A DNA stretch of 64,000 bases, taken from an archaeon. GTDB taxonomy: Archaea > Undinarchaeota > Undinarchaeia > Undinarchaeales > JBDRKL01. Below the pieces are notes generated by a model, which was not told where the DNA came from, did not search any database, and saw only the letters and a program-made list of their open reading frames with translations. Below are positions 4,833 to 58,152 of this stretch, piece after piece. Position 1 is the first letter of the stretch. Every line of letters begins with the position of its first letter. The translations under genes were made by a program, and so were the position numbers. The stretch lies in NCBI GenBank assembly GCA_043814055.1, contig JBDRKL010000010.1, positions 20,685 through 84,684 of the forward strand, read 5' to 3'.

Positions 4833-5702
4833 TTATTTCTCTTTCTCCCAATTCTTGTCAATCTGCGCCTGTATCTGCGCAATCTGCTCTTCTGAAAGGT
4901 GCTTGAACCTGCGCTTCTGCATAGCGAAATAATCAGCAATCGGCTTCTTCGGCTCCGGCGGCTTCACAGTTACCCTGCGCTCGCCGTTCTCCTGCTCCCA
5001 CATCTTCCACAGCCCGGTCTCAACAACCAGGCGCGAAATCTCAACAGTCTTGTTTGGAGCCAAGCCCCAGCCAGGCACGCACGGCGCGTAAACCAGTATG
5101 AATTTTGAGCCCTTGTGGGTCATAGCCTTCTTGATTTTTGCCTGGAAGTCAGGTAAATATCCGATTGAGGCAGTAGCTACGTAAGGAATCTCGTGCGCAG
5201 CCACTATATCCGCGATTGGCTTCTTAAACTCGGTCTTGCCTTTTATCTCACTGCCGACCGGCGAAGTGGTTGTCCACGCGCCGAACGGGGTTGAACCGGA
5301 GCGCTGGATTCCAGTGTTCATGTATGCCTCGTTGTCATAGCACAAATACAAAACATCCTCGTTGCGTTCAAGCATCCCTGAGAGCGCGCCGAACCCGATA
5401 TCATAAGTCGCACCGTCCCCTGCGATTACAGAAACTGTGGTGTGGTCGTTGCCCTGAGCGCGGAGCGAGTGCACGATTCCAGAAGCCACGGATGCAGTGT
5501 TCTCAAAGAGCGTGTGGATATAAGGGACATTGAAAGCGCTTCTTGGGTAGTTTGAGCTTATAATTTCTGAGCAGCCTGTTGCGTTAACTATGACTGTGTC
5601 TTTTCCTGTTGTCTTGATGAAGTGCTTTATCGCAATGGCCATACCGCAGCCTGCGCACGCGGTGTGCCCGGATTCAAAAAGCTTTTTCTCTTTAGCTGCC
5701 AT
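4833..5702 (-). CDS. porB: pyruvate:ferredoxin oxidoreductase, beta subunit (TPP-binding)
   Basis: 289 aa. N-terminal GHTACAGCGMAIA, GDGATYDIGFGAL TPP motif, operon context with porA/D/G. Confidence 0.9.
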   Translation of the reverse strand: MAAKEKKLFESGHTACAGCGMAIAIKHFIKTTGKDTVIVNATGCSEIISSNYPRSAFNVPYIHTLFENTASVASGIVHSLRAQGNDHTTVSVIAGDGATYDIGFGALSGMLERNEDVLYLCYDNEAYMNTGIQRSGSTPFGAWTTTSPVGSEIKGKTEFKKPIADIVAAHEIPYVATASIGYLPDFQAKIKKAMTHKGSKFILVYAPCVPGWGLAPNKTVEISRLVVETGLWKMWEQENGERRVTVKPPEPKKPIADYFAMQKRRFKHLSEEQIAQIQAQIDKNWEKEK

Positions 5703-5703
5703 T

Positions 5704-5832
5704 TCAATGCCTCACCGCTTTCATCAGCTTTGAACACAATGAATCTCCAGCAATATTATTTTTTACAGTCTCTGGAGTTTCATTGTGAATGAACGCGAAG
5801 CTGCTTGACAAATTTACTGCTTTGCGTCTCAT
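5704..5832 (-). repeat. intercistronic element, copy B (between porA and porB); contains a 42-codon mini-ORF
   Basis: The ATG (5832-5830) overlaps the porA TAA as TAATG. It stays open for 42 codons to TGA at 5706-5704, 1 nt before the porB ATG. It shares the sequence blocks ATGAGACGCAAAGCAG, AGCTTCGCGTTNATTC and CAAAGCTGATGAAA..TTGAAATG with 14242-14382. It has an internal 16-bp hairpin. Confidence 0.7.
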
Positions 5833-6953
5833 TATAGCCACCCCTGGTGCTCTTTTCCATCACTTATCTTTTTCATCAAGCTGTTAATATCTCTCTTGCG
5901 CACGTCCTTGCCGCCGAGTCCGCCAACAAAGCTTGACATCGCGACATCAGAATCTTTCATCGCGTTCGCAACATCGGAGTAAACCGGAGGCAGCGCTCCC
6001 ATGCTGTATGCTTTTTCAAACACCACAGCGCCTTTCTTGCCCTCGAGTGCCTTGGAGATTTCCTCGTATGGGAAAGGCCTGTATGAGCGTATCTTGAGTA
6101 TGCCGTACTTGCTGTCTGATTCCTCTACTGCGTCGCGCGCGGTTCCGATTGTTGAGCCCATGCTTATGAAAATATAATCCGAGTCGTCCATATTGTAGCC
6201 CTGGATAAGCCCGTCCCCGTAGCCGCGGTCGAACTGCTTCTCAAACTTCGCAGCCTCTTTCTTGATGTTCTCTTTTGCCTTGAGCAAATCCTTGTGAACA
6301 TCTTCTCTAAAGTTCTGGTAATCTGCAGGCATTGCGTAAGCGCCCATTGTCATTGGATTTTCAGTGTCAAGCTTGACATCCATCTTGAGCTTTGGCAGGT
6401 ATTTCCGAACGTCCTCAACTTCTGGAATCTCCACTGGCTCAACAACGTGCGTGAGTATGAATCCATCCATGCAGACCATTGCCGGGAGCATAACCTGCTC
6501 TGAAACTTTGAAAGCCTGAACCGTGTTGTCAATAGCCTCCTGCGAGCTCTCAGAGTAAAGCTGAATCCAGCCTGAGTCGCGCTCTGCAATTGAGTCCTGC
6601 CAGTCGTTCCAGATGTTCAACGGCGCGCTCAGCGCGCGATTTCCGACCACCATTGTAATCGGAAGTCTCATTCCAGCTGCACAGTAAACTGGCTCGTGCA
6701 TCAGCGCAAGCCCTTGTGAAGATGTTGCTGTGAAAGTCCTGCCGCCTGCGGCTGCAGCGCCTATGCAGGCGCTCATTGAGCTGAACTCCTGCTCAACCGC
6801 GATATAGCTCTTTATTCGGCCGTCTGCATGCAATTGAGCAAGATGCTCTGCAATGTGTGTGCTCGGCGTGATTGGATAGCACGCCACAACATCTGGCTCG
6901 CAATTTGCCACAACCTCTGCCACTGCCTCGGATGCCTCCATGGTAATTTTCAT
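5832..6953 (-). CDS. porA: pyruvate:ferredoxin oxidoreductase, alpha subunit
   Basis: 373 aa. N-terminal CYPITPST block typical of 2-oxoacid:ferredoxin oxidoreductase alpha subunits. Operon context. Confidence 0.9.
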   Translation of the reverse strand: MKITMEASEAVAEVVANCEPDVVACYPITPSTHIAEHLAQLHADGRIKSYIAVEQEFSSMSACIGAAAAGGRTFTATSSQGLALMHEPVYCAAGMRLPITMVVGNRALSAPLNIWNDWQDSIAERDSGWIQLYSESSQEAIDNTVQAFKVSEQVMLPAMVCMDGFILTHVVEPVEIPEVEDVRKYLPKLKMDVKLDTENPMTMGAYAMPADYQNFREDVHKDLLKAKENIKKEAAKFEKQFDRGYGDGLIQGYNMDDSDYIFISMGSTIGTARDAVEESDSKYGILKIRSYRPFPYEEISKALEGKKGAVVFEKAYSMGALPPVYSDVANAMKDSDVAMSSFVGGLGGKDVRKRDINSLMKKISDGKEHQGWL

Positions 6954-7390
6954 TTGTCCCTCTGATTCGGGTATACTTCTTCCCTCTTTTTTATATTTCT
7001 AACCAGCTTTCCGTTTTTATCTATCAAGTGAGGATCTTCGTCTGTTTTGCCATTAGAATTAATATCTGGTAATGAGATTAAGAGATAAGTAATACCGCCA
7101 GTTCTCTTATGTAGGTACCTCGCTTCCTCTTCTTTAACATCAAAGCTCATAAAAGCTGCAACAGAGTATTTTAATTTGCTTCTAGCTGATTGGGTTTCTT
7201 CCAATTTATCTAATCCGTCATCTTGCAAAATTTGTGGTGTGTAAGGTTGTGCCCTATATTTTTTTTCTGGTGTTGAACCCAGCAAGCGCTCCTCTTGTGG
7301 CGTAAGGTATTTCAAATTTGGCCTCACATTTGGTTTTATTTTTCCTAAAAGTTGAATATAGTCACTATCAACAAAATCAAGCCTACTCAT
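6950..7390 (-). CDS. orphan hypothetical protein inserted between porD and porA
   Basis: 146 aa counted from the internal ATG at 7390, which forms an ATGA overlap with the porD stop. Its TGA overlaps the porA ATG (ATGA). It has no Cys and no recognisable motif, and is visibly more AT-rich than the flanking por genes. The track ORF extension to 7441 overlaps porD and is rejected. Confidence 0.6.
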   Translation of the reverse strand: MSRLDFVDSDYIQLLGKIKPNVRPNLKYLTPQEERLLGSTPEKKYRAQPYTPQILQDDGLDKLEETQSARSKLKYSVAAFMSFDVKEEEARYLHKRTGGITYLLISLPDINSNGKTDEDPHLIDKNGKLVRNIKKREEVYPNQRDK

Positions 7391-8343: not shown

Positions 8344-8485
8344 TGGCGCCGGAGTCAGGATTTGAACCTGAAAGGGCCGAAGCCCATCCGCTTTCTAACT
8401 TTAAGAAGTTCGATTATAGTTTTTCACTATTGCTCACTTCTCAAAGTTTCGAGGCGGACGCGTTACCGGGTTCTGCCACTCCGGC
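8344..8485 (-). tRNA. tRNA-Ser(CGA), type II, with a ~55-nt intron at the canonical 37/38 site and encoded CCA
   Basis: Acceptor GCCGGAG/CTCCGGC, anticodon stem TCCGC/GCGGA with loop CUCGAAA, long variable arm GGGCTTCGGCCC, T-arm TCAGG-TTCAAAT-CCTGA, discriminator G plus CCA. The intron is about 8393-8447 and forms its own hairpin (ACTTTGAGAAG/CTTCTTAAAGT). Confidence 0.85.
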
Positions 8486-10949: not shown

Positions 10950-12071
10950 ATGGAGAAGAGGCCTGTTGTTGAGCCGGGTGAGCTGATTAGGGCGCCGGCG
11001 CTGACCGAGGACGAGTTGCTTTCTTTTAGGGAGACTTGGGAACGCCGAGAGAGGAAGCCGAAGGTGAAGGGCATTGAGCGCTACAAGACTATAGAAGGAA
11101 TGCTCGGTCTGAAGAAATCTTACATCAAGGTAATGCTGCAGATGCTCGAGGGGGACTTCCCGGACATAAGAAGCATGGAGCCTGAGAAAAAAGCAAAGGC
11201 ACTGCTGAATTTCTTAAAGCCGACTGAAATCATAAAAGGCGAGCTGACCGAAGAAAAATGGCAAGAATATGCGAAACAGCACGGCACTTGGATACTCAAA
11301 AAGCCCGTGGGCCACCTTGACAACCACCCCACACTCCTCGCGCTGCTCAGGACCGGCTGGGGCAACTGCATGGCACGCGCCCTATTCTTTAGGGTGCTCG
11401 CGCGGCACATAGGCCTTGACGACAAGACGCAAGGCACCAGATGCAGGGTTGCACTGATGCCAGAACACGCAGTAGTTTTCCTAACCATAAATGAGAAGAA
11501 AGTCCTCGCAGACCCGACGCACGGCGTGCTTGGCAAAGAGCCAGCCCATATGTATTACCCCCTGAAAGAGATGTACGACGAGGCCTTTGAAGTTGAGGAT
11601 GTTTACGCGGTTTATTGGCTGAAGGCGAGCCTTGCAGAAAAGCCAAAGATTGGCGTGAAGTACTACACCCTGTTCCACAAAAAATATCCAGACTATGCCG
11701 AGTGCCTGAACAACAGAGGCATCCTGTACAAGACTATAGGTGAGCTTGGCAAAGCACTCAACGACTACAACAAAGCCCTCCAATTAAAACCAAACGATGC
11801 CGAGTGCCTGAACAACAGAGGCAACCTGTACAAGACTATAGGTGAGCTTGGCAAAGCACTCAACGACTACAACAAATCCCTCCAATTAAAACCAGACTAT
11901 GCCGAGTGCCTGAACAACAGAGGCATCCTGTACAAGACTATAGGTGAGCTTGGCAAAGCACTTGCTGACTTGAAAAAGGCATTAGCCCTTTTCAAGGCGC
12001 GCGGGCAAGAGCAATATGCAGAAATCGCTGAACTAAACATTATGGGTGTAAAATCTAAAATGAAACAATGA
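10950..12071 (+). CDS. transglutaminase-like cysteine protease domain fused to TPR repeats
   Basis: GWGNCMARALFF (Cys), PEHAVVF (His) and LADPTHG (Asp) resemble a transglutaminase-core triad. The C-terminus carries three near-identical 34-aa TPR units. Start set at ATG 10950; the track ORF starts at TTG 10929. Confidence 0.6.
   Translation: MEKRPVVEPGELIRAPALTEDELLSFRETWERRERKPKVKGIERYKTIEGMLGLKKSYIKVMLQMLEGDFPDIRSMEPEKKAKALLNFLKPTEIIKGELTEEKWQEYAKQHGTWILKKPVGHLDNHPTLLALLRTGWGNCMARALFFRVLARHIGLDDKTQGTRCRVALMPEHAVVFLTINEKKVLADPTHGVLGKEPAHMYYPLKEMYDEAFEVEDVYAVYWLKASLAEKPKIGVKYYTLFHKKYPDYAECLNNRGILYKTIGELGKALNDYNKALQLKPNDAECLNNRGNLYKTIGELGKALNDYNKSLQLKPDYAECLNNRGILYKTIGELGKALADLKKALALFKARGQEQYAEIAELNIMGVKSKMKQ
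11691..11962 (+). repeat. 102-bp tandem repeat, about 2.7 copies (encodes TPR units)
   Basis: Units start at 11691, 11793 and 11895 (GAC/AAC-TAT/GAT-GCCGAGTGCCTGAACAACAGAGGC...). They are nearly identical at nucleotide level. Confidence 0.9.
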
Positions 12072-13075: not shown

Positions 13076-14245
13076 ATGCAGGAAAATCCTTTTTCAGATT
13101 CAGTGCCAACGCACTTTGCCATAGCGGCAACTGTCTACACAAAGCCGCTCACCGAGCTTTCAGACACGACTAAATCAAACAAGTCCAAGCTCATACTTGT
13201 TACAGGCGGATACGGCAACGGCAAATCCCACGCGCTTGAGCGGCTCAAGAACGACTTGAACATTAACGAGAAGAAAAAGCTCGCAATATACTGCTCAGCT
13301 TTCGCGACCAAGAGTTTGCAGACAATTTACGAGCAGGTATGCTCTGAGCTTTCAAGCGGAAAGCTGAATAAGTTCGCTTACACCACGGACGGACGCGCGT
13401 TTATGACTAACAAGGGCATTCCATCCAAGATTATAGACATATTCTACAACAAGGAGGCAATCCGACCTGCCGAGGATATCAAGGCAAACTTCACCTACGG
13501 CAAGATTGTCGCGTCATCCTCTGATGTTATTCATTTTTTCTGCGCTCTCTCTTTGCTCGTGGACCAGTTCGTGCTGCTCATGGACGACATAGAGGAAGCG
13601 ACTACGATGGAGCAGAACGAGCGCAAGATGTTCTTCGGGCACATCCGCGCCCTCTACGACGAGGCAGTTAGAAAGGAACTGAGCATGATAGTTGTGATGA
13701 CACTCACGCTTGACAAGCTTGAGCTGCTCAAGAATGACCGAATGGACCTCTACGAGCGAATGGACAAGGTAATTAAGTTTGACAAGCTCTCCCCTAAGGA
13801 ATTTGAAAATATTATTGAGAAGCGGCTTGAGATAAGCGCGCTTGATGACATCAAGGTTGACAAAAGCGTAATAAAACAAATTTGGGGCTATTCTGACAAC
13901 ATCCGCGGAATGCTGAACATACTCCGCGACCTTCTTGAAGAGGTCTACAACAAGGGTGAGAAGAAAATCACTACAGTTGTGCTTCCTGAAAAAACCGTGT
14001 CTCAGCTCATAGAGTCACAGAAGATACGGGACAGCTACAAGCCTGCTGATGATTTAATCCTCAACATTCTTGAATCTGAGGATGGCCTCTCTGCAGAGGC
14101 AATCATAGAGCGCTCAAAGAAGAGCGGCTCCTGGATACGGCACCGCCTCGCAGATTTGGTTAATGATGGCGTGCTGCTCAAGGAGCAGGTCGCTAGGAAC
14201 AGACCTGCAAAATACATACTAAGCAAGGTGGAGAAGAAACAATGA
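13076..14245 (+). CDS. P-loop NTPase with C-terminal winged-helix domain
   Basis: 389 aa. Walker A is LVTGGYGNGKSHAL and Walker B is FVLLMDDIEE. The C-terminal LSAEAIIERSKKSGSWIRHRLADLVNDGVLLKE looks like a wHTH. The layout resembles Orc1/Cdc6 or archaeal-ATPase proteins. Confidence 0.65.
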   Translation: MQENPFSDSVPTHFAIAATVYTKPLTELSDTTKSNKSKLILVTGGYGNGKSHALERLKNDLNINEKKKLAIYCSAFATKSLQTIYEQVCSELSSGKLNKFAYTTDGRAFMTNKGIPSKIIDIFYNKEAIRPAEDIKANFTYGKIVASSSDVIHFFCALSLLVDQFVLLMDDIEEATTMEQNERKMFFGHIRALYDEAVRKELSMIVVMTLTLDKLELLKNDRMDLYERMDKVIKFDKLSPKEFENIIEKRLEISALDDIKVDKSVIKQIWGYSDNIRGMLNILRDLLEEVYNKGEKKITTVVLPEKTVSQLIESQKIRDSYKPADDLILNILESEDGLSAEAIIERSKKSGSWIRHRLADLVNDGVLLKEQVARNRPAKYILSKVEKKQ

Positions 14246-14382
14246 GACGCAAAGCAGAGCTTCGCGTTAATTCCAAAGCTGATGAAATAGGAGAAACTTT
14301 GAAATCATACACAAAATCCCTAGAAATTGATGAGCTTTGTGTTGATTCCAAAGCTGATGAAATAGGAGAAACTTTGAAATGA
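14242..14382 (+). repeat. intercistronic element, copy A (between the ATPase and Zn-ribbon genes); contains a 46-codon mini-ORF and a 36-nt direct repeat
   Basis: The ATG at 14242 overlaps the upstream TGA (ATGA). The TGA at 14380-14382 overlaps the downstream ATG at 14379. A perfect 36-mer ATTCCAAAGCTGATGAAATAGGAGAAACTTTGAAAT occurs at 14270-14305 and 14345-14380. Homologous to 5704-5832(-). Confidence 0.7.
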
Positions 14383-15065
14383 GAGCAACGATTACCCTGA
14401 ATAAAAAACCAATGACTGAGAAGACCTACTGCAACCTGGTGAATGCATTCACCTCGGAAGGCTACACGCCAATTATTGACCCGCGCCAGTTTGACTCGCC
14501 AATTTCAATCAAGGCGAGGTTCAAGGCAAAGGAAGAAAAAGTGCGGTTCATAGAGTTCTCGCCGCAGATGGAGCTGAGCATAGAGCACGAGCTCACCAAG
14601 TCCAAGGCGGAGAAGCAGCTTGACGCGCTGAGCACAAAACTGGAGGAGCTTATGGTGGTTGGGGATGCAAAAGTTGAGGACTATGAGTTGGCTACTTTGC
14701 AGATGATATCCCAGCATAACATGCTCCAGAAGAACCCAGTGGTGTTTCCTGCAAACGAGGCCGAGGCAAAGCTCTTTGAGGGGCTTGAGCAGAAGAAAAT
14801 ATTTTCCAAGGCATTCGCGATAAAGTGCCCAAAATGCAATCGCGCGTTTATGGTTCCGCACAACAAGATAAAGCTTGAATCCGATAAGATGTTCTGCGTT
14901 GGCTGCGAGGCGTGGGTTTCTATACAGAATGAAACGCTTGCGTACATAGTCAACGAGGAATATATGGCAGTCATAGACACGGTCTGGGACAAAGTTCAGA
15001 AGCTAATTCGGGCGAGCTGGCGCGAAGTCATCAAGCGCGGAATACCAATAATAAAAGTGGAGTAG
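14379..15065 (+). CDS. hypothetical protein with a C-terminal zinc ribbon
   Basis: 228 aa with CPKCNRAF...(17 aa)...CVGCEAW. Translationally linked on both sides, with 1 nt before the purN ATG. Confidence 0.55.
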   Translation: MRATITLNKKPMTEKTYCNLVNAFTSEGYTPIIDPRQFDSPISIKARFKAKEEKVRFIEFSPQMELSIEHELTKSKAEKQLDALSTKLEELMVVGDAKVEDYELATLQMISQHNMLQKNPVVFPANEAEAKLFEGLEQKKIFSKAFAIKCPKCNRAFMVPHNKIKLESDKMFCVGCEAWVSIQNETLAYIVNEEYMAVIDTVWDKVQKLIRASWREVIKRGIPIIKVE

Positions 15066-23253: not shown

Positions 23254-24399
23254 ATGGACATACTCCTGTCGCTTGCAATGCTGCTTTTCGCTGCCAAGAT
23301 TGGCGGTTTTATCAGCAAGAAGATAGGTCAGTCAGCGGTCCTTGGGGAAATTGTTGCTGGCGTCATAATAGGGCCGAGCGCCTTCGGTCTCTTCACATAT
23401 ACTGAGTTCTTCAGCACGTTCTCTGAGCTGGGCATAGTTTTTCTCATGTTTTTGGTCGGGCTGGAGCTAAACATCAAATCATTTGAGCACTTTTTGAAAA
23501 GGGGCGCCCTAATAGCCCTGGTCGGGGCTTTCCTGCCATACTTAGTTGGGATTGCAGTAGCATCCCTGCTGTTCCATTGGAGCGCCCTGCAGAGCTTTTT
23601 GTTTGGGGTCATACTCATGGCTTCCAGTGTCACCATAACAGCAGCAATCCTAAGGGATTTGAAGAAATTGAAAAGCCCGATCGGTCTCACGATACTTGAC
23701 GCGGCAGTTGTTGATGACGTGATTGGCATTACTATGCTGACCTTTTTGCTGGCTGTGACAAAAGCGACCACTTTCTCAATAATAGATTTTGGCGGCATAA
23801 TGCTAAAAGTTCTCGTATTCTTCATCGGCGTCTTCCTCGCAGGCCCGCAGCTCGCAAAGTATGTTATTGCGCTAGGGGAGCATCTTGACCTCAGGGTTGA
23901 GGAGGGGCATCTCTCAGTAATAATAATATTAATCCTAACCCTGGCCATACTTGCCAATGCTATCGGGCTCTCCATAGTGGTGGGGGCTTTCCTCGCAGGC
24001 ATGATTCTGGACAAGAGGCGCGTAAAAGCAGCCGGCCACGAAATATACAGCATGGCCTATGGGCTGTTCGTCCCTGTGTTCTTCGTGCTTATCGGGAGCT
24101 ACGTAGTAGTCGGTACCCTGTTGAGTAATCTGCCGCTAATATTCTTGATTGTGGCAATAGCAATAATCACAAAGCTGGTGGGCGCCGGGCTAGGTGCCAG
24201 GCTCTCCAAGATGAACTGGCGCCAATCCCTGATTATCGGCGTCGGGATGATACCCCGCTGTGAGGTCGCTCTCATCCTGGCACTTATGGGCACGACACTC
24301 CACATAATAGACACTGAGATATACTCCGTACTTGTCACTGCAATTGTCTTGACAGCCATAGTAACTCCAATATTGCTCAAGGCGGTCATGAGGGACTAA
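23254..24399 (+). CDS. cation:proton antiporter (CPA2, Kef/NapA-like)
   Basis: 381 aa with about 11 TM segments. N-terminal GQSAVLGEIVAGVIIGPS block. Confidence 0.85.
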   Translation: MDILLSLAMLLFAAKIGGFISKKIGQSAVLGEIVAGVIIGPSAFGLFTYTEFFSTFSELGIVFLMFLVGLELNIKSFEHFLKRGALIALVGAFLPYLVGIAVASLLFHWSALQSFLFGVILMASSVTITAAILRDLKKLKSPIGLTILDAAVVDDVIGITMLTFLLAVTKATTFSIIDFGGIMLKVLVFFIGVFLAGPQLAKYVIALGEHLDLRVEEGHLSVIIILILTLAILANAIGLSIVVGAFLAGMILDKRRVKAAGHEIYSMAYGLFVPVFFVLIGSYVVVGTLLSNLPLIFLIVAIAIITKLVGAGLGARLSKMNWRQSLIIGVGMIPRCEVALILALMGTTLHIIDTEIYSVLVTAIVLTAIVTPILLKAVMRD

Positions 24400-25067
24400 T
24401 GGTAAAATGGCATTCACTTTCTGAGGACGACACAATTGAAAAAATGAATTCAAGCAAAAGCGGCTTGGACTCAAAAGAAGCAGCCGAGCGGCTCAAGGTA
24501 TATGACCCAAACCTTCTTGAGGTCGGCGACAAAGTTCCTGCAGACGCGCGCATAATTGAGCAGAGCAACCTGCACCTTGACGAGGCAATGCTTACAGGCG
24601 AGTCAGTGCCGGTATGCAAGACTGCAAAGGCAATCAATAAAGAAAATGCAATCCTGGTCGAGCGCAAGAACATAGCCCATATGGGCACTGTGGTCACGAA
24701 CGGCTGCTGCGAAGCCGTTGTAATCGGCACGGGAATGAAAACAGAGATGGGCAAGATTGCAAAGCTGATACAGGATGTTGAGGAAATGCAGACGCCTCTC
24801 CAAGTTAAGCTTCGCGACCTTGGAAAACAGCTTGGCATTATAATACTTGGAATCTGCGCGGTTGTGTTCTTCTCAAACAAGTTCCTGCTGCTTGCAATTG
24901 CAGTGTCACCAATAGGCCAAATATTGATACTTTACGTGCCCATGTTCCAGTTGGCATTCCACACAATGGCAATGGGCTTGTACGACTGGCTGCTCATCAT
25001 AGCTGTTGCAAGCACTGGCTTCATCTATCTTGAAGCTTATAAAGCAATTAGTCTTAGGAGGAAGTGA
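24399..25067 (+). pseudogene. relic of a P-type (Ca2+/cation) ATPase reduced in frame to 222 aa
   Basis: It retains the Cation_ATPase_N-like start (WHSLSEDDTIEKM..GLDSKEAAERLKVYDPNLLE) and the A-domain block (GDKVPADARII...DEAMLTGESVPV...GTGMKTEMGKIA..TPLQ). It also retains one TM helix and the last TM region (YVPMFQLAFHTMAMGLYDWLL). It lacks TM1-2, DKTGT and the N/P domains. Confidence 0.75.
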
Positions 25068-35222: not shown

Positions 35223-35693
35223 ATGAAAAACACATACAACACTCAAATATTGGATATAATTCCTTCGACAGTAGATGAAGGGAAAGGGCGGATTATAGAT
35301 GGTTATGTAAAATTAAAAATAAATGACATTGAATTTTGGGCTTTTGCTTTAGAGGATTGGAGAACAGGCAAATGGTCTCTGTCTATGAAGGGCTCCAATT
35401 TATCATTAAAACTTAGTTTTTTGAATCTAAACATACAAGCATCTGAAAAAAAGATTAAACAAATAGTTCCAATACCAAATCAGAAAAAACCCTGTGATTA
35501 CATAATTTATGGCGAAGTTGTTGATAAAGTGCCTTCGTCAAAACTTCCTGATAAATATGAGCGACTTCAGGTTGGATGTGGCTTTGTAGTAGGTGGTGTC
35601 AGTGTAGCTAAGAATCAATTCAAAATCGGCGACTACATCCAGGCAGAAGGCCGCTTGGACGCTTACCGCGTGAAGGAGGCAGATGAACTCTAA
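35223..35693 (+). CDS. hypothetical cytoplasmic protein (AT-rich gene)
   Basis: 156 aa with no signal peptide. It lies 13 nt after the upstream stop and overlaps the giant gene start by 11 nt. Confidence 0.5.
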   Translation: MKNTYNTQILDIIPSTVDEGKGRIIDGYVKLKINDIEFWAFALEDWRTGKWSLSMKGSNLSLKLSFLNLNIQASEKKIKQIVPIPNQKKPCDYIIYGEVVDKVPSSKLPDKYERLQVGCGFVVGGVSVAKNQFKIGDYIQAEGRLDAYRVKEADEL

Positions 35694-38600
35694 CCTAAAA
35701 CCCCCACTGCTCGCAGCACTTATCATAGCCCTGCTCTTGGTAGTCCCAGCTCTTGCACTTGAGCCTGACTATGAGTCCGCTGCAGTTGGCCGCATTGTCG
35801 GCGACACCGCAACGGAGATGGCATCTGTGCTGGACTCAGGCGATTTCTCCTTCCAGCACGCCACATTTTACTCAAATAACGGTCTGCCTTACTCGCCTGC
35901 CATGGACACAAAATATGTCCTTGGCGCGTATTTCCCCTCCCAGCTCACGTCCCAAATAAACGGCTGGAGCTGGTCTGACGTCAGCAGCAGCATGTCCTCG
36001 TGGAAGAATAACGAAATGTTCATTGTTGAGGCGGACAGCATGTTCAGCAGTGGCGACTTAAAGGTTAAGGACAGCCCCTATTATGGAACTTCTTACTTAG
36101 AGGCCTCAGATGTTTCTGGCTGGAAGTCCAGTTTTAGCGCAAAAGACCCTTTGTTTGTGTTTGATGCTGAATACGCAGGCCTGTACCTGCCAAAGAGCTT
36201 TGACTCAACGGACTCTTTTGTTGGTCAGCTTGGCCAGGACTCCAGCATAATTGCCCCAACTGCTGTGCCAAGCGATGAGTTTGTCAAGTCCCTGGTGTGC
36301 TCCATGTATTATTCTGACGGTTCTCTTGGGACTGCTTTCAGGGACGCAAGGAATTCCTACTATAGGAATGCTGAGAACTATGGGGAGCTGCCTGGCCTGT
36401 CCCTGATGTCCTATGAGCTGTACGGCGACCCAAGCGCCTCATTTTCCATGCCAGGGTCGCCAAGCCCGTCTGCAGTTGACCAGTATTGTTACCCCTACAC
36501 AGAGGGCGGCACAGTAAACGTGCCAATGGAGATTGATATTACCAAGAAAGGCGCTGTAGCTGATGACGAGGTCTGGAAGGTCCAGCTGAGCGTTGGCAAC
36601 ATAAAAAATCTCAGGGTCAAGCTAAGCTGGGCGCAGACCAATGCAAACCTTGACCTGACTTTAGTTGACCCGAATGGCAAATCTTATTCCCCTAGTTCTA
36701 CAGGCTCCTCAAACGAGGAAGTCACTGTATGGAACTTCGCCAGTAACCTGCGAAACAAGCCTTGGATAGTAAAGGTAACAGGGACAAATGTCCCGAGCAG
36801 CATTGGTTATGCAAAGTTTGATGTTCTAGCCACTTCTCCTTCTGATGAATCAGGCGGCGGGGGTGGTGGAGGCGGAGGTGGCGGCGGAGGCGGTGCAGGT
36901 GGCGTAAATCTCACATCCATAAGCCTCAATTACCTCTCAGCGTGCTCCCCTGAAAATGGTCTGACTTTTGTAATCAAGGGGACAAAGGCAGGCGAGGGGG
37001 ATGAAATCATAGTAAACCCGGACCAGGCAGCAGGGGAAGCCTTGAAGTATTTCAAGACCGGTCTTGTGATACCAAATTATGCGCAGTGGATTACAATGGA
37101 CTTCAAGCCAGGGCACTTGGACTGGGACAACTGCGGAACTGTTGAAAGAGTTGACCCTATCTTCAGGCAGACTGAGGTCGCCCGCGTCATGTTCGACGCC
37201 GACGTGAAATTAAAGTTTGATGAGTTCGGCTCTGTTTCCGAGACTCTCCAAAAAGAGATGCGGCAGTATTGGATTGATGACATACAAGCAGGGCCGTATT
37301 GGAGCGAACTGTCTGCCAAAGGCTTCAATGAATTCCCTGATTACAAAAGGCGCGCATATATTCATCCAGCGGCATTTGAGGTAAATGGAAGCGGCTGTAA
37401 TATATTCATATCCGAGGCAAAGATGAATGTAACGCATGTGTTTGACTGGGTTGTCCTGGATACTGCGAGATATAGCCTAAGCCCTGAGGTACAGGCCTAT
37501 TTGGACCAGCGCCTTGAGAACTGGGAAAATGTTTTCCAGATGCGGCAGGAAACTGAGCTTGTTTCCAAGCATCTTGAGTCATTAAACAACGATCCAAAGT
37601 ATGCAGAAATGAGGCGGGTCTACACCGCATTGGCGCTTGTACAATGGTACAAACAACAGGACAGGAGCAAGATACCATTTGGAGATATCATTGACTCAAA
37701 CAACATAAGCGGCTTGGAGTCAGACCCCCTATTTGACCAGAGCTATTGGGATGCGCAGGCTTGTCAATTCATGTTCACGACTCCAATGCCATGCGGCTTC
37801 TATGGCGGAACCTGCAACTGGGACTTCGGCGGAGGGGTCTCTCTTGGCTCTGTCCCGCCGGACGTGCTCGGCGAGCTTGACGGGCAGATAAGTGAGCTGA
37901 TGTCAGAGGCAATCACTGCGCCGTATGTGCAGGAGGGGAACGATTATTATTTTGGCGGGGAGATTGTGGCAAACGAGCCTGACCTAAAGCCTGTTGGCAT
38001 GGGCTTTTCCGAGCTATCTCCTGCCACGCAGGAAACCATCAACATAACTGCGGATCTAGCCAATACAGGGCGCACTGGTTCAGCCGGATTCACAGCAAGG
38101 TTCTATGACAAGTACACGTATCCAAATGGTCATGTGGCTGCGTATTTGATTGGGGATGCTAGCGCTCCGCCGCTTGATGCAGGCGCTTCTGAAGCAGTAT
38201 CAGTCAGCTGGAGCACCGGGGATCTCCTGGGTACACATGAAATTTACGTGAAGGTAGACTACAATGGCGAGGTTGATGAATCCAATGAGCTGAACAACCT
38301 GTTAATCAAGGAACTTGCTGTGGTTGACCCTAACCCAACAGCAATGATAATGTATCCTAAAAACGGGGCTGGTTTTTCACAAGGGAGCATTGTGGCTTTA
38401 TCTGGCATAGGAAGTGATGAGCAGGACGGTTTCCTCCCAGAGTCCTCAATTGGGTGGAGCTCAAGCATTGATGGTGGGCTGGGCACAGGATTCCGCCTGG
38501 AGCTTTCCAACTTGTCAGCAGGAACTCATACTATAACCCTGACTGTAACTGACAGCACGGGATTGCGGGATTCAAAGCAGGTGGCATTAACTATCTACAA

Positions 38601-41600
38601 GCCTGATTATCCCCGGGTTTTATTGAGCTCGCCAACAGAAGGGCAGAAGTTTGCAGAGGGTGAGCTAGTATATTTCACTGGCTCTGCTTTTGACCCTGAG
38701 GACGGCGTACTGCCTGATTCTTCACTTGCCTGGAGCTCCAGCATTGATGGCGAATTAGGAACGGGAAAATCAATAATGAGTACAGGCCTGTCAGTTGGTA
38801 CTCACATCATAACTCTCTCAGCCACGGACAGTAGCAGCTTAACATCAACTGCTAACACCAGCATAGTGGTAGAGGAAGGCAGCCCGGTTGCAAGCATTGC
38901 CTCTCCTGCGAGCGGCAACAAGTACTTTCAGGAGAAAGACATATCATTCAACGGCTCTGGCTCTGACCTGCAGGACGGCTCACTGCCAGGAAGCTCCCTT
39001 TCATGGTTATCCAGTAGTGACGGATATCTTGGTCTGGGAGCTACAATCTCCAAAGCTCTGACAAGCGGCACGCATGTAATCACACTCACTGCCACTGACA
39101 GCCACGGCCTTACTGGCACAAGCCAGGCAACCATCGAGGTGCTCCCGCCTGGCTACGCATACTCCTCTATAATGTCGCCGCGCAGCGGACAGGAGTTCAT
39201 ACATGGAAGCACTATAACATTCACAGCAAGCGGAGAGGGTGCGCAGGGGTCTTTACCAAGTTCTGCATTCGCATGGTCCTCAAGCATTGACGGCGCGATT
39301 GGAACAGGCAATTCATTTAATTTTGACTCAACCACCCTGAGCGTGGGAGAGCATGAGATAACGCTCACGGTCAACAGCAGTGGCGGACTGGTTAGCGCGC
39401 TGAAGACTGACATAAATATAACCCCTGCGCCGCCGGTCGCAAGCATTGTATCGCCATCAGCCGGTCAGGCATTTGCTGCAGGCGAAGATACCATATTATT
39501 CAACGGGTCAGCAGTTGACCTAGAAGACGGCGTTCTTGGCGGGGATTCACTCGTATGGTCCTCAAGCATTGAGGGGGGAATTGGGACCGGCGCCTTGTTC
39601 AACAGGACTAACCTGTCCGTAGGGACGCACAAAATAACGCTCACAGCCACTGACAGCGATGGAAAACAAGGCACCGCAGAAGCCAATGTTGTTGTGGTTG
39701 GAATTGGTGAAGCAACGCTAATCATATTCTCCGACGGCTCTGCAGTGAAGAACTTTACATTCTCATCAGCTGGGAGCCAGGTCGCTTCTTTGAAGATCCC
39801 GAAAGAGGGGGATGTAACTTATGCAACAGTGCAGATTGAGGGCAAAACTGCTGGGGGCTATTATGGCGGAGGGAGCCCCAACTTAGTTTCTTACTTTAAA
39901 TTTGAGGAGAGCTCTGGGCAAACCGCAATTGACAGCAGCACCTACCAGAATCATGGGCAGCTTGGATCTACAAATGGGACAGATTCCAGCGATCCAACTC
40001 GGGTAAACGGTCTTATTGGAAAAGCGCTGGAATTTGACAGGTCTGATGATTTCGTCAGTGTGCCTGATGATGACTCACTTGATTTCGGGACAGGAAGCTT
40101 TACTGTAGAGTTCTGGATGAAGCACAATACAATTGTCAGGTCCAGCGAAGCCGGGGACGAGGAGTATGCAGTCATCAAGATGAATTTCGGCAACCACGAG
40201 GGCTTTTATATCAGGATGGACCCGTACCAAAGCACAGCAGGTCAATTGGTTTTTCGAGTCAGGGATACCATACCCAGTACCACAGATCTCCATTCTCAGG
40301 TAGCACTTGACGACAATAAGTGGCATTATATCGCCTGTGTCAAAAATGGCACTTCATCACAGAAGATATACGTGGACGGGGTGGAGAAAGCCTCAGGTAC
40401 GCCACCGGCTGGCAGCACATCCCACAATCAGGATTTGTTCATCGGAAGCAGCCTCCAAGCCAACAGGGTTTGGGGTGGAATTATTGATGAGGTCCGCATA
40501 TCTAATGTAGCCCTGAGCGCTTCTGAGATTAGCGGGCATTATGCCCATGCTGTAAATTGGATTGGCTACTGGAATTTTGACGAGGGGAGCGGACAAATCG
40601 TGGGAGACAAGAGCAACAACAATCATAATGGAATGCTGGGGGCTTCAGAGAATATTGATAACGATGATCCTTTATGGGTGGGTGGGATTTCAGAAAGTGC
40701 ATTGGAATTCGACGGAAACAATGATATTGCTAAAATTTCAGCCGGAACCTGGGATGATTTTGGCAGCAATAGTTTTACAGTAGGATTCTGGGCAAAAACA
40801 AACGAATTATTTACAGACAGTATACATCTCTTGGTCCATAATATGCAGTATTCAGGGGGTCCAAATGCCCTTGGCTGGGACATTGGCATCCTAAAGAATG
40901 GGAGCGTGCTTTTGGATATCCGTGATGGGCACGACGAAGCCCAGGCGTATTCAAATTCAGTGATCAGTGATGGGACATGGCATTATATTGTTGGCGTTCG
41001 AGATGGGTCTTCTATAAAAATATATATTGATGGGAAAAAAGAAGCCACATCGGATTGTTCCAATGTAGACTCAACCAGCAATAGTGACCCCATAAGAATA
41101 GGGGGCAGATACCCGTCTGAAAGCTATTACTTCTATAAAGGTGCTATAGACGAAGTTATGCTTTGGGACTATGCGCTTTCTGATGTGGAAATCCAAGAGC
41201 TATATCCTGGCTCCTCTTTATCATACCCGTTAAACCCCAGCCTGGACGCTGGCTCGGACGGCAATTCTGAGTGGAGCTATGCAGGAGCTTTTGGTGCAAA
41301 GGAAACAACGCAGGACTTTCATAGCGAACTGAACGAGCACCTGCTGGCGTGCACGCCTGTAAACAACATGTGTACAATCCCACTAAAAGTGTCTTCCAAA
41401 TCGGCAGGCATCCTGGAGCTTTCCAACATCAGTATCCAATATTCTATAGTAGACAAGTATCCGCCTGTAATCCACAGCATAGTCATCATACAGAACACCT
41501 ACAAGCCAGGCGAGCTGCTAAAGATTAAGGCCAATGTGTCAGACAACGTTGAAGTGCAGCGGGTTGAGACGGCGCTCAGCAATTCAATAGTACAATTGGC

Positions 41601-44600
41601 TTATAATGAGGTGACTGGGCTGTATGAGGGCAACATGACCGCGCCGCAAAGCGGAAATTACATTGCCAACATAACTGCATTTGACTCTGTCGGGCTGAGC
41701 AGCCAGGCCAATATTTCCATAGAGATAAACTCAGTTAAGCCGGACCTGAGCATAAGCCCGGGCGATATCGTGTACGCGCCGGCTGAGCCAAAGGACGGCA
41801 GTATTGTTGTTGTAAATGCCACGATTTACAACTTCGGCGAGACTGCAGCAAATAACTTTGGGCTGGAGCTGCTCATTGACGGGGTTTCAAGCGAGGCAAA
41901 AATTATTTCAGTCCCAGCAATGTCTGCCACGATGGTGCAATTTGAGTGGGCTGCTGCCTACGGTCAGCACGAAGTTAAAGTGCGCGCTGACTACACCAAT
42001 GCCCTAGATGAGTGGGATGAGTCAAATAATGAGGCTGGGTTCACCTTAACTGTGATAGACGCTGTGCCTCCAACAATACACAGCATATCGGTTGAGCCTA
42101 TGATAGTGCATGAGGGGGACATTGTCTATGTCAGTGCCAATGTTACTGACAACGTTGAAGTGAAGCAGGTCAAGGCAGAAGTTGGCACTGCCAGCAAGGT
42201 ACTTATGTATAACAACGAGTCTGGGCTATATGAGGGCACGATAACAGCGCCTTTTAAGGGATTCTACCATGTCGTGGTTACTGCAACTGACAGGGATGGC
42301 CTGGTAAGCTCCAGGCAGGCAGGGCTCAATGTGAATAGCAATAAGATAGACCTTGTAGTGGGCACTGCTGACATCGCCTTCCTCCCAGCAAGCCCGAGAG
42401 ATGGTGAGTTTGTTAATATTAAGGCGACCATCCACAATACTGGTGCTGCAGACGCAGACAACTTTATAGCAGAGTTCCTGGTTGATGGCAATTCGCATGA
42501 AACTGTCAATGTTTCTGTTCCAGCAAAATCCCAGGCACTGGCAGAATTCACCTGGGTTGCCAGCTATGGCACGCACACGCTTTCAATCAATGCAGATTCA
42601 GAAAATATCATTGCAGAGGTTAATGAAACCAATAACCTGGCTGGGAAGGTTCTGCTGGTTCCGGATACTATTCCGCCGACAATAGAGAGCATAACCAATA
42701 GCCCCGAAATAGTCCACGAGAGCAACCTTGTCACAATAGAAGCTGTTGTTACAGATAACCGCGGCATAGATGTGGTAATTGCAGAATTAAATGGTGCAAA
42801 CATAAGTCTTTCGCCTGATTCAGGCGCATATACAGGTGTGCTAACCGCTCCTGCTGAAGGGAAATATAACGTCAAGGTAACTGCTTTTGATGACAGCAGC
42901 TTGTCCAGCACGCGGCAGGAGCCGCTTGCTGTGCATAGCATTAAGCCGGATATCCAGATAAGAGAGGAAAATGTCACCTTTGTCCCAGAGAATCCTGTTG
43001 ATGAGTCTGTGCTGAGGATAAGCGTTGTGCTGTATAACACAGGTGCAAGCAGCACGGGCAGTTTTGAGGCAGGGCTTATTATAGATAACAAGGCAGTGCA
43101 AAGCAATACTATTTCAGTGGAAGCAGGTTCTAATGTGAGCACAGAATTTTCTTGGAATGCCACTTATGGCAACCACACCCTGAAGATAAAGGCAGACACC
43201 AAGAATGATGTAGCTGAGATAAATGAGTCAAATAACGAGTACACAAAAGAACTATTTATCCCTGACATTACCCCGCCGGACTCTCCAGTGGTTAGCGCAG
43301 ACCCCAGCAGCTGGGCCGCAGACAGCACGCACAAAATATCCTGGGGCAAGATACAAGACCGCAACGGCATAGACCGCTATGAGTACCAGATTGATTATGG
43401 TGAGTGGCATAGTGTCGGGGCTTCTGATAGTTTCAAGACACCAGAGCAGGCAGAGGGAATCCATACTATTTATGTCAGGGCAGTTGATGGGGCCGGCTTG
43501 GCCGGCAAGCCCGGGAATACCAGCATTTACATAGACCAGAGCGCGCCAAACACACCTGTTACAAAGGAATGGCACAGCGGGAAAAGCTGGAGCGCACACG
43601 ATACGCCCTATTACGCTTGGTCTGACCCAGGGGATTTAGGAAGCGGAGTAGCCAGCTATTTGGTAAGTGTTGACAACCAAACGCCAGTCAGCGTAGGGAA
43701 TACGTCCTACCACCCAACATTAGGAACCGGTATGCATACTTTCAAAGTCAAGGCAGTTGATGCGCTTGGGCATGAAAGCGCTTGGTCTGATATAATAACA
43801 GTTTATATAGACACAACATCACCGAGGGTACTAGATGTGGGCTCTCCAACCCACCCGGATCAAGAAACAGTCTACATGGATAATATGCCTTACTTCAATT
43901 GGACTGAACCAAGTGACAACTCAGGAATTTATGGCTATTACTATCTTATAGACAATCTTGAGGGCACAATCCCAACTGAACTGTACTCCTGGGCTCCTGA
44001 ACCTTTTGTAAACTTTACAGGATTTGGCAATCAGGTATATTCAGGCGCAACAAAGAAAGAGATGGGCTTGCCTGATGGCACATGGTACTTCCATGTAAGG
44101 GCAATAGACGTGGTTGGAAATCTTGGGGCAGCCACTCACTACAAGGTAAACATCCTGACGAACGACCCGCCTGAGATTACTTTGTTGCAGCCAAATGGCG
44201 GTGAAATGTGGAGTGGGGTGAAAGAGATAGCTTGGAACGCTTCTGACCCTGATGGTAATTTGCTTGAGTTTAGCGTTTCATACAGCACGGATGGGCTCGT
44301 TTATACCGAGATTGGTAACACAACTGAATTAAGTTATGGGTGGGACACTTCCACAGTAGAGGATATAGACACCTACACGATAAAAGTCGTTGCGAGCGAT
44401 GGCAATGCAACTAGCGAAGACACTTCCGATATAAACTTCCTGATAGACAACACCAAGCCGGAAACAACAGACAATCACGACGAAGCGTGGCACACCCAGG
44501 AGGTAACAATAGAACTGGATGCAAACGATTCTTTCTCTGGTATTGCCGATACCTATTACATCATATACCAGGATGAAACGCCGCAGGAAACAAAGACAGT

Positions 44601-48400: not shown

Positions 48401-48498
48401 CAACTGGAATGATTTCAGCAATAAGCAGCTTTCCAGCCCATATTGTTAATGTTTTGAACAATGCCTGGAGCTTTATTATAGGATTATTTAGCTGGTGA
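45490..48498 (+). CDS. secreted/anchored 1002-aa protein with a Cys-rich module
   Basis: N-terminal TM or signal segment FLIISIIFFLLFGAVAVFAVY. Cys-rich CNDECSTGQYSCNGSARIECGNFDGDSCLEWGNKIDCEYGCALGVC. C-terminal Pro/Ser-rich linker, then PTGMISAISSF...FIIGLFSW. Confidence 0.7.
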   Translation: MALKSQLKSRFLIISIIFFLLFGAVAVFAVYTPTPSAPMLCTPDVAHDKVSCRVGGDGNRDPSFSWRDGINIDPVSQYWSGDNPGMRIVGLDIPNKCKIDLRIEGILCNRLDPFPSFEVHKEGTVSGNACFMDMVDLPFGVGGIWNGCTDVNAPPFVNGGVTYYYEEPAPVCNDECSTGQYSCNGSARIECGNFDGDSCLEWGNKIDCEYGCALGVCEEPEPLLYNISEKLYFQAEPYLENTYVNMEDEWQKISLSQYQKVTATEPSFFFMQVDENTRTFAYDYPSASLGVSDSWAERKAKIYVEHPKGYSMSGASVYTSIPVSDTISICVGNAVNDKINNLPIEVFETLGKKAIEEAAKEGVIWASGVGILLESKKAMDVAKFVACTQEDENNYVYIGTTNEDGYAEVWLREGQDTEMMARWYDLNTLYGGVSVVNQYGFQGSKNVKIEEWMGGVPEFTISTKGKARVITIRDETQKDIDEELEQISSFFENEYGIEVNHWTADDWAYAPKPPVGGDGTDLKIYLARLDSLPGGSPNNIGVNFQNYNPTLVYEGVAWQVFDGTNWYEGDVFGLVAAESSLKKFLIAGLGKNGFETAVDAFTSKEMNKVVKWTDPVQYETLKSHVYQIKGASTVDIWEAKVCISGPKDDCKNTNSNGIADFGKVPTGTYTISVEKKGYSVDSTTPSPRQVDLNSPGSTQWVNFGMTANEWNYEMPEEVRVSERFYVYTNFTNVGDELVEFSYSTELRGAKFTRLMLQGTTVFLAPGNSERARWEFSADQEGEGTLWIIKGNQEINTGKKIKVGPLPDLVAYIQKIDVWDYGGRVGTDFQVSVEVRNRENYSVNITVEMVNKSNNAVLEKHSLIQVPYGWSIYGFQVWREANPVDYVFNVRYDGAVIDSKDFTAQAGTQVNVPPAPTSIGGGSPSVRSPAPANLPADAPIAGDSSSGSQNALPSMPRNIQQDTFSTPAQNGPTGMISAISSFPAHIVNVLNNAWSFIIGLFSW

Positions 48499-57999: not shown

Positions 58000-58152
58000 G
58001 GGCCCGTAGCTCAGTCTGGTAGATCGCATCCTTCGCAAGTCAGAACCTAACGGTTCCGACACCTCCCTTGCGGCTTCGCTGCTAAGAGGTAAACGTTCGC
58101 AGGAATGTTTCGAAACAGGATGAGGCCTCGAGTTCAAATCTCGACGGGTCCA
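58000..58152 (+). tRNA. tRNA-Ala(CGC) with a 79-nt intron at 37/38; no encoded CCA
   Basis: Acceptor GGGCCCG/CGGGTCC with the G3:U70 Ala identity pair. Anticodon stem CATCC/GGATG with loop TTCGCAA. T-arm TCGAG-TTCAAAT-CTCGA. Discriminator A. The intron at 58038-58116 contains CTTGCG, complementary to the CGCAAG of the anticodon loop. Confidence 0.85.

Follow-up and report, generated by a model that had tools for sequence, protein, structure and literature searches.

Among the described systems, the closest to the element analyzed here appear to be MIRUs, i.e. interspersed repetitive units of mycobacteria, for which Supply et al. 1997 is reportedly the primary paper. In this study, we analyzed a stretch of 64,000 nucleotides (64 kb, called the window throughout) from a metagenome-assembled genome (MAG) of an archaeon of the Undinarchaeota (GenBank assembly GCA_043814055.1, contig JBDRKL010000010.1 with a length of 149 kb, forward strand, positions 20,685 to 84,684), in which two copies of a small inserted element, copy A and copy B, separate consecutive genes of two operons; a third copy, copy C, is found on a different contig of this MAG. 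MIRUs of Mycobacterium are 40–100 bp long, are present in 40–50 copies, and are located in intergenic regions of operons with polycistronic transcription (PMC3184786, PMC12548453). Filled and empty sites are known, tetranucleotide direct repeats are found, and the ends of the open reading frame (ORF) overlap the adjacent genes. MIRUs are also described as inserting at start codons, with an internal ORF coupled to the target gene; they are oriented like the surrounding genes, and tandem duplications of the unit, often forming arrays, occur (PMC3184786, PMC12548453).

In Haloferax and Escherichia coli, termination-reinitiation coupling is lost beyond a spacing of about 30–40 nt; in archaea, FttA-dependent polarity acts on RNA that is not translated (PMC12548453). 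With reference to other work, heteromeric subunits of the PorA/PorB type are given as the kind of gene pair relying on coupling (PMC12548453). Due to the coupling limit and the polarity, an untranslated insert of 130 nt would be damaging at junctions such as those described below.

Copy A is located on the plus strand between the gene of a STAND/KAP-like P-loop NTPase (here called ATPase; 13076–14245, TGA stop at 14243–14245) and the gene of a Zn-ribbon protein of 228 amino acids (14379–15065, ATG at 14379–14381) with a weak CxxC zinc-finger signature. Copy B is located on the minus strand between porA (5832–6953) and porB (4833–5702) of the operon for the four-subunit pyruvate:ferredoxin oxidoreductase (POR). 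All features are listed in Table 1. Both segments had been pointed out in a first-pass annotation of the window, and the coordinates of copy A, its ATGA overlaps with both neighboring genes, its 46 codons and its perfect 36-nt repeat were all verified at the positions given there. The same layout had been claimed for copy B; this is right for the position between porA and porB, whereas the overlaps differ, with TAATG upstream and a TGA 1 nt before the porB ATG downstream. The perfect repeat of copy A (14270–14305 = 14345–14380) is part of a 49-nt direct repeat with a spacing of 75 nt. This period equals 25 codons, and the duplication is thus frame-preserving. By repeat finding, copy A comprises 1.65 copies of the 75-nt unit; with less than two full units, no array is reported by Tandem Repeats Finder.

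In a set of 5.8 billion proteins, just three are related to the Zn-ribbon protein (62%, 52% and 48% identity), and filled sites were compared with empty ones in these relatives. The comparison comprised the loci L001–L005 (four contigs of the 62% relative plus the 48% relative) and, for the 52% relative from JGI, its gene table. All of these relatives have a 4-nt overlap (GTGA or ATGA) between the ATPase gene and the Zn-ribbon gene, and copy A is absent. In L001 and L002, porA and porB abut as TAAATG and copy B is absent. The window is syntenic with L001 across about 20 kb, and the genes in synteny on the relatives' contigs are those for an aminotransferase, porBADG, an RNase Z-like protein, Taw1, the NTPase, the Zn-ribbon protein, PurN, a FolC-like protein, Vut_1, FolD, a DUF1003 protein, ThyX and a Na/H exchanger. 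Filled and empty sites were compared through the protein ends of the flanking genes. The C-termini of the ATPase (...KVEKKQ* / ...VEEKEK*) and of PorA (...HQGWL* / ...QEGWV*) as well as the N-termini of the Zn-ribbon protein (MRATITLN / VRTTVNLN) and of PorB (MAAKEKKLF / MAAEKKHLF) coincide in position, down to the single residue, with those of their orthologues. Each segment therefore lies exactly between stop and start, with no flanking codon gained or lost.

Direct repeats of AATG bound both inserts; in copy A, a chance match with the second codon of the Zn-ribbon gene lengthens the repeat to AATGAGA. Segments A and B are shown to be insertions with exact boundaries and direct repeats, present in multiple copies and each with a single open frame. 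The empty orthologous junctions in syntenic relatives, together with the near-identical third copy in the MAG, agree with the first-pass description of a portable unit placed in sense orientation into two unrelated operons. On inspection, a bulge-helix-bulge intron was dropped as a candidate, since the junctions are direct repeats and not complementary. An integron attC site or cassette was dropped as well, since the flanking genes are the same syntenic neighbors as in the relatives.

Copies A and B are homologous and collinear over their full length (nhmmer within the window, E = 2.2e-6 with A as query and 4.4e-5 with B as query), and the block identities reported by the first-pass annotation thereby prove to be beyond chance. 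The blocks themselves are present as it had described them. An identical block, ATGAGACGCAAAGCAG, is matched at 16/16 positions; this exact 16-mer by itself is not significant in 64 kb. It is followed by a second common block, AGCTTCGCGTT[A/C]ATTC (= AGCTTCGCGTTMATTC), matched at 15/16 positions, and by a 3' block, TTGTGTT..CAAAGCTGATGAAA..GG.GA..C.TTGAAATG, which ends in a motif similar to a Shine-Dalgarno (SD) sequence plus ATG. In the region of the 5' hairpin, 31/32 positions are identical, compared with 59/87 (68%) for the remaining aligned element; a binomial test, run as 32/33 with inclusion of the shared A before the ATG, gave P ~5e-5. With 36–39%, the GC content of the elements is lower than that of the window (47%).

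The two copies differ by a 14-nt indel, TAAATTTGTCAAGC, located in the loop of the hairpin ACGCAAAGC/GCTTCGCGT. Due to this indel, peptides A and B are in different frames after MRRKA, and they are out of frame with each other again in the 3' block. As the first-pass annotation had stated, the indel falls in the hairpin loop, the arms are identical in both copies and the frames part after residue 5; conservation of the element is at the nucleotide level and not at the peptide level. This bears on the explanation that the mini-ORFs are ordinary small-protein genes, i.e. members of two families with a size of roughly 45 residues that were taken up by operons. In the MAG at NCBI, both carry the annotation of a hypothetical protein, their start codons have upstream SD-like motifs, and the peptides of copies B and C share 40 of 42 residues. 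Nevertheless, we consider this explanation very improbable: homologous DNA is read in different frames in A and B after codon 5 and in the 3' block, the best-conserved stretch is the hairpin, where the frame differs between the copies, and both differences between B and C are non-synonymous. Also, no homologue of either mini-ORF peptide except the peptide itself was found in 5.8 billion proteins or 1.84 billion representatives. A small-protein family therefore fails as an assignment, with differing frames and peptides that hit only themselves.

Within the 3' block, the variable part is similar to the native SD region lying just upstream of the same site, with GGAGAAGAAAC versus GGAGAAAC at site A (14222–14244 versus 14363–14381) and GGTGGC versus GGTGAGGC at site B (5852–5830 versus 5718–5700). 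A long target-site duplication was rejected for this part, since copy C, at another place, retains the B version (peptide ...KAVRL), so that the part belongs to the element. The likeness is probably SD-like convergence only.

The stem of the 5' hairpin consists of 8 Watson-Crick pairs and one A.C mismatch on the sense strand. There, its stability does not exceed that of shuffled sequence (z about −1.0 to −1.2); on the antisense strand, where the A.C mismatch turns into G.T, the hairpin is more stable, with z values of −2.5 and −2.7. This antisense bias is compatible with recognition as single-stranded DNA but proves nothing. The arms are identical in A and B, hence no covariation signal is obtainable. 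The hairpin begins just 2 nt from the junction, and no conserved hairpin was found at the 3' end. From its near-invariance and its position beside the fixed AATG, this 5' hairpin is the best candidate for a cis-acting site used in copying of the element.

According to another explanation, the element is first of all a cis-acting RNA module, such as a processing, stability or attenuation hairpin, as in REP or ERIC sequences; it would adjust how strongly the two flanking cistrons are expressed relative to each other, the open frame being secondary. The hairpin arms kept identical despite the 14-nt loop indel would fit such a module, as would the fold of copy B, which is better than that of shuffles (z = −3.16), and, by eye, GCTTCGCG can pair with the upstream ACGCAAAGC or with a downstream CAAAGCT. 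Against this, the fold of copy A as a whole is borderline (z = −1.95), and copy A lacks the long hairpin seen in copy B, which is therefore no family feature. The 5' hairpin lacks extra stability on the strand that would be transcribed in sense and is better on the opposite one. The scan of the window with Rfam yielded no family at the gathering threshold except tRNAs. Moreover, the POR operon and the operon with the ATPase, Zn-ribbon, PurN and FolC-like genes have no obvious regulatory logic in common, and the relatives function without the element. Altogether, we regard an RNA module as improbable.

Even less credence, in fact hardly any, is given to an archaeal C/D-box small RNA (sRNA) or another small RNA gene. 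According to this explanation, CUGAUGA would be the C box, UUGA 13 nt further on the D box, and the variable stretch in between the guide. CUGAUGA followed by 13 variable nt and UUGA is indeed found in 3/3 occurrences of the 3' block, and copy A has a weak full-length match to the archaeal C/D sRNA sR12 (12.2 bits, E = 2.6). However, neither copy shows the canonical C-D'-C'-D architecture, with RUGAUGA as C box, CUGA as D box and guide spacers of ~12 nt, if one mismatch per box is tolerated; the same relaxed rule yields 109 such half-mers in the window, the D-like box is UUGA instead of CUGA, and no terminal stem flanks the boxes. Copy B has no snoRNA match. The C/D-box sRNA was rejected on the grounds of the boxes missing from A and B and of the sR12 score, which falls well short of the Rfam gathering score (12.2 versus 38 bits).

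Copy C was detected via its peptide. Mini-ORF B shares a 90% identity cluster with the 42-residue ABIG20_04240, which is encoded on a separate contig of 32.7 kb in the same MAG, and the two peptides are identical at 40/42 positions (~95%) with the differences S11N and H42L. PorA, PorB and the NTPase are each alone in their own 90% cluster. Thus, copy C does not result from a recent duplication of the por operon or from a co-binned strain variant of that operon; the element itself was copied. Judged from these identities, B and C read as recent copies and A, with ~68% identity outside the conserved blocks, as an older or faster-diverging one. No further copy was found in the 64-kb window by nhmmer with A, with B or with an A+B profile, or by blastn with a word size of 7. 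Exact-protein matches for porB, the Zn-ribbon protein, P0001, P0007, both mini-ORFs and PorD are not on record.

Compared with MIRUs, the archaeal element shows the same arrangement in several respects. Both copies A and B lie between co-directional operon genes in sense orientation, both have a bridging ORF (A with ATGA at both ends, B with TAATG at the 5' and TGAnATG at the 3' end), junctions are empty in L001–L005 and in the JGI contig, and a 4-nt direct repeat, AATG, is present at both ends of A and B. Tandem duplication of a unit may have its counterpart in the internal repeat of copy A. The first-pass annotation had named no described element class with this layout; mycobacterial MIRUs have it (PMC3184786, PMC12548453). 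There are also clear differences: the host is an archaeon and not Mycobacterium, the length is 130–137 nt instead of 40–100 bp, and at least three copies contrast with 40–50. Furthermore, the archaeal element has a strongly conserved 5' hairpin, and the ORF of copy B stops 1 nt before the ATG and not at −4. Sequence homology to MIRUs is very unlikely, judged from the archaeal host and the GC content given above. By analogy, the element may be seen as an archaeal variant of the known MIRU-type kind and as a functional equivalent of MIRUs. A full-text literature search found no MIRU-like element in archaea, within the limits of the collection searched.

Other classes of small elements share some of these features. 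With MITEs, short for miniature inverted-repeat transposable elements, the archaeal ones included, the element has in common that it is small, of non-coding size and non-autonomous, that it is present in several copies with a short flanking direct repeat, and that filled and empty sites exist. In contrast to MITEs, both readable copies are strictly in sense orientation and at start codons, and no related transposase was seen among the Pfam-scanned ORFs of the window. A classical MITE was ruled out, since inspection showed no terminal inverted repeats in A or B; inverted repeats are internal only. Palindrome-associated elements derived from IS200/IS605 and the REP/BIME elements are similar in that the best-conserved part is an imperfect hairpin near one end, in the fixed AATG at the insertion point and in the strand asymmetry of the hairpin, and REP sequences are often located between operon genes. 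Such elements have conserved imperfect hairpins near either end, which are read as single-stranded DNA, and are substrates of Y1 transposase or RAYT. Here, however, no conserved 3' hairpin was found, the 5' hairpin begins just 2 nt away from the junction, and no gene for TnpA, TnpB or RAYT was found among the Pfam-scanned ORFs of the window; also, REPs are ~35 bp long and have no bridging ORFs. Rickettsia palindromic elements (RPEs) likewise are short repeats tolerated in expressed regions by keeping frames open. In contrast to RPEs, which are inserted in-frame inside protein-coding genes and become protein, the archaeal element lies between cistrons and has its own relay ORF.

The relay ORF is the feature by which the element could be tolerated at tight junctions. 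In each copy, the frame starting at the captured ATG is the sole open sense frame, and the other sense frames carry 2–8 stops. Dinucleotide shuffles gave a probability of an open frame of 0.023 for copy A and 0.11 for copy B. The conserved terminus TTGAAATG(A) contains a stop in two of the three frames, and the third frame runs directly into the ATG; thereby copies in different frames can both work. As stated by the first-pass annotation, the 3' block carries both the SD-like motif (GGAG in A, GGTGAGG in B) and the downstream start codon. In the window, SD-like 4-mers precede 19 of 53 genes (36%) versus a background of 13%, and the commonest spacing of co-directional genes is −4 to +2 nt. On the sense strand, no T-run longer than 3 is found in either copy, so that no archaeal-type terminator is introduced.

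From this layout, the following sequence of steps can be proposed. The element would insert at the downstream cistron's start codon in a tight stop/start junction and duplicate (A)ATG. The original SD sequence and ATG, the latter still overlapping the upstream stop, would then open an ORF of 42–46 codons spanning the element. This relay ORF would stop at (A, −4) or beside (B, +1) the new ATG at the 3' end of the element, which would be preceded by the element-borne SD-like GGAG or GGTGAGG. Ribosomes would be relayed via two termination-reinitiation steps and the inserted RNA would remain translated. A 130-nt insert in a coupled junction would hence be nearly harmless to the operon, and the peptide itself would be irrelevant. 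Both the translation of the relay ORF and the mechanism of mobility are inferred from sequence. Of the translational-coupling or regulatory cassette proposed by the first-pass annotation, the coupling part is consistent with the layout (frame of the captured ATG, SD-like motif plus ATG, absence of oligo-T), whereas a regulatory RNA role is not supported, the sense hairpin being no better than shuffles.

In our view, the element is probably near-neutral, non-autonomous and of low copy number, targets start codons, is present in at least three copies in the MAG and keeps coupling through the relay ORF in a MIRU-like manner; its sequence would have been filtered, or designed, such that translation of the operon is left undisturbed. 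Several points weigh against this. The joint chance of both relay frames being open is ~0.003, which is suggestive and not overwhelming. The mini-ORF of copy B stops 1 nt short of the ATG and does not overlap it, and the SD spacing of copy A (10 nt) is rather long. No terminal inverted repeats are present, and among the 50 ORFs of the window scanned with Pfam, i.e. all except the ORF of 3227 amino acids and a few short ORFs at 61–64 kb, no gene for a transposase, an integrase or a TnpB-like protein was found. Three copies are known, of which A and B were read as DNA and C as a peptide, and no copy is present in the relatives' loci L001–L005. For public collections, which do not hold the remaining contigs of the source MAG, we used the exact two-arm pattern AGACGCAAAGC-N(1-31)-GCTTCGCGTT. 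It gave 10 matches in genome_contigs (185,579 species-representative genomes) and 14 in the metagenome_contigs of JGI, all of them unrelated: they are in the wrong context, lack the 3' block and are for the most part GC-rich. In viral_contigs (IMG/VR), neither the 5' pattern nor the 3' pattern had a match (0 each). The finding is limited in that it rests on three copies in a single MAG.

Some of these points would favor copying by recombination of a rare illegitimate or microhomology-mediated kind, or by ectopic gene conversion, which would need no mobility machinery of its own: the small number of known copies, the lack of a transposase among the scanned ORFs of the window and of inverted terminal repeats, and the lack of family members in the public collections searched. 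In this case, a junction spacer would have been copied via AATG(AGA) and SD-like microhomology, and selection would have kept only those copies in which an ORF bridges the junction. Microhomology agrees with the 7 identical nt, AATGAGA, found at either end of copy A, and by eye, with gaps allowed, the Zn-ribbon gene is similar over its first 13 nt to the 5' end of the element. Against this, without some form of targeting one would hardly expect three independent events that each hit a start codon precisely and with one orientation. B and C, located on different contigs, share ~95% identity and A is ~68% identical to B outside the conserved blocks, which means at least two rounds of copying over time. 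The differential conservation of the 5' hairpin region moreover suggests a cis-acting site. We therefore judge recombination without machinery unlikely, and the near-neutral MIRU-like element is retained as the preferred reading.

A further-reaching reading is possible, though we hold it only tentatively and consider it rather doubtful. According to it, the element would belong to an independently evolved archaeal family homing to start codons, whose strand-specific 5' hairpin plus AATG would be read by a putative enzyme, possibly on single-stranded DNA. A built-in translational relay, consisting of the captured ATG, a frame-agnostic ORF, its own SD sequence and a new ATG, would allow it to colonize the most constrained positions of a compact genome.

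If the MIRU-like character is confirmed, the strategy of MIRUs, with exact insertion at start codons and a relay ORF sparing coupling and avoiding polarity, would not be confined to mycobacteria, and small selfish or neutral elements would have reached the same solution independently in Archaea by convergence. The element would also provide a natural test case for archaeal termination-reinitiation, with two relay steps across 130 nt compared with a limit of ~30 nt, and a compact, portable part for bicistronic designs. For annotation, it would serve as a warning that hypothetical proteins of 42–46 codons at such junctions are by-products of an element and not protein families.

Table 1. Features of copies A and B of the inserted element; positions are those of the window.
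Feature	Position	Strand	Remark
Copy A including the start codon handed to the Zn-ribbon gene	14242..14381	+	Net insert 137 nt
Relay mini-ORF A, 46 codons, ABIG20_03575	14242..14382	+	Start overlaps ATPase stop (ATGA); TGA stop overlaps Zn-ribbon ATG
Left flanking direct repeat AATGAGA (core AATG), copy A	14241..14247	+	Holds captured original start codon and ATPase stop (ATGA)
Right flanking direct repeat AATGAGA (core AATG), copy A	14378..14384	+	Holds current Zn-ribbon start and mini-ORF stop (ATGA)
Conserved 5' hairpin, copy A: arms ACGCAAAGC / GCTTCGCGT, loop AGA	14247..14267	+	Arms the same in copy B
First 49-nt unit of the internal repeat in copy A	14257..14305	+	Repeat finding
Second 49-nt unit of the internal repeat in copy A	14332..14380	+	94% identity to the first unit, final 36 nt identical
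Element-borne SD-like GGAG, copy A	14365..14368	+	10 nt upstream of ATG at 14379
Copy B including the start codon handed to porB	5700..5832	-	Net insert 130 nt
Relay mini-ORF B, 42 codons, ABIG20_03520	5704..5832	-	TGA stop 1 nt before porB ATG (TGAAATG)
Left flanking direct repeat AATG, copy B	5830..5833	-	Captured start overlaps porA TAA stop by one base (TAATG)
Right flanking direct repeat AATG, copy B	5700..5703	-	Contains porB start codon
Conserved 5' hairpin, copy B: same arms as copy A, 17-nt loop	5793..5827	-	Loop holds 14-nt indel (5816-5803)
Long hairpin specific to copy B: 16-bp stem, one mismatch, 21-nt A/T-rich loop	5735..5787	-	Fold and inspection
Element-borne SD-like GGTGAGG, copy B	5710..5716	-	7 nt upstream of porB ATG

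The por operon contains another lineage-specific insertion in addition to copy B. The orphan ORF ABIG20_03530 of 146 amino acids (6950–7390, minus strand) separates porD from porA and overlaps each of them by ATGA, whereas porD and porA overlap directly (TAATG) in L001; it is thus a second insertion in this operon, and its junctions are of the same style. No match was obtained for it in Pfam, NCBIfam or PHROG, and it is alone in its cluster and shows no nucleotide similarity to the 130-nt element. Under the reading of a family homing to start codons, this orphan could reflect the same route of insertion with cargo.

By chance, the hairpin pattern used for the public collections also met an unrelated conserved double-hairpin repeat, GACGAGACGCAAAGCGTCTCGT...GAAAACGCTTCGCGTTTTC, present in several Halobacteria. 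It was found in L006, L009, L010, L012, L015, L019 and L025, which are haloarchaeal genomes and metagenome contigs, and in L015 it falls within Rfam RF02656 sot0042.

Some further observations were made elsewhere in the window. Two tRNA genes of 139 nt (8347–8485, minus strand) and 153 nt (58000–58152, plus strand), presumably with long introns, are detected by Rfam and missed by ARAGORN. Within the gene of a TPR-repeat protein, three tandem 102-nt repeats with 83–86% identity (11662–11980, plus strand) are recently duplicated TPR units of 34 residues. For an ORF of 222 amino acids (24399–25067, plus strand), the similarity to P-type ATPases is confined to their N-terminal, actuator and extreme C-terminal parts, so that it has the look of a minimal derivative or of a remnant after internal deletion. 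The ORF of 3227 amino acids (35683–45366, plus strand), which has internal repeats of ~276 nt, is followed by an ORF of 1002 amino acids (45490–48498, plus strand), for which the Pfam scan gave a weak CarboxypepD_reg match only; both probably encode large surface proteins. Finally, the S-adenosylmethionine synthetase encoded at 60082–61242 (minus strand) is of the bacterial/eukaryotic type (PF00438/PF02772/PF02773), which suggests horizontal acquisition.

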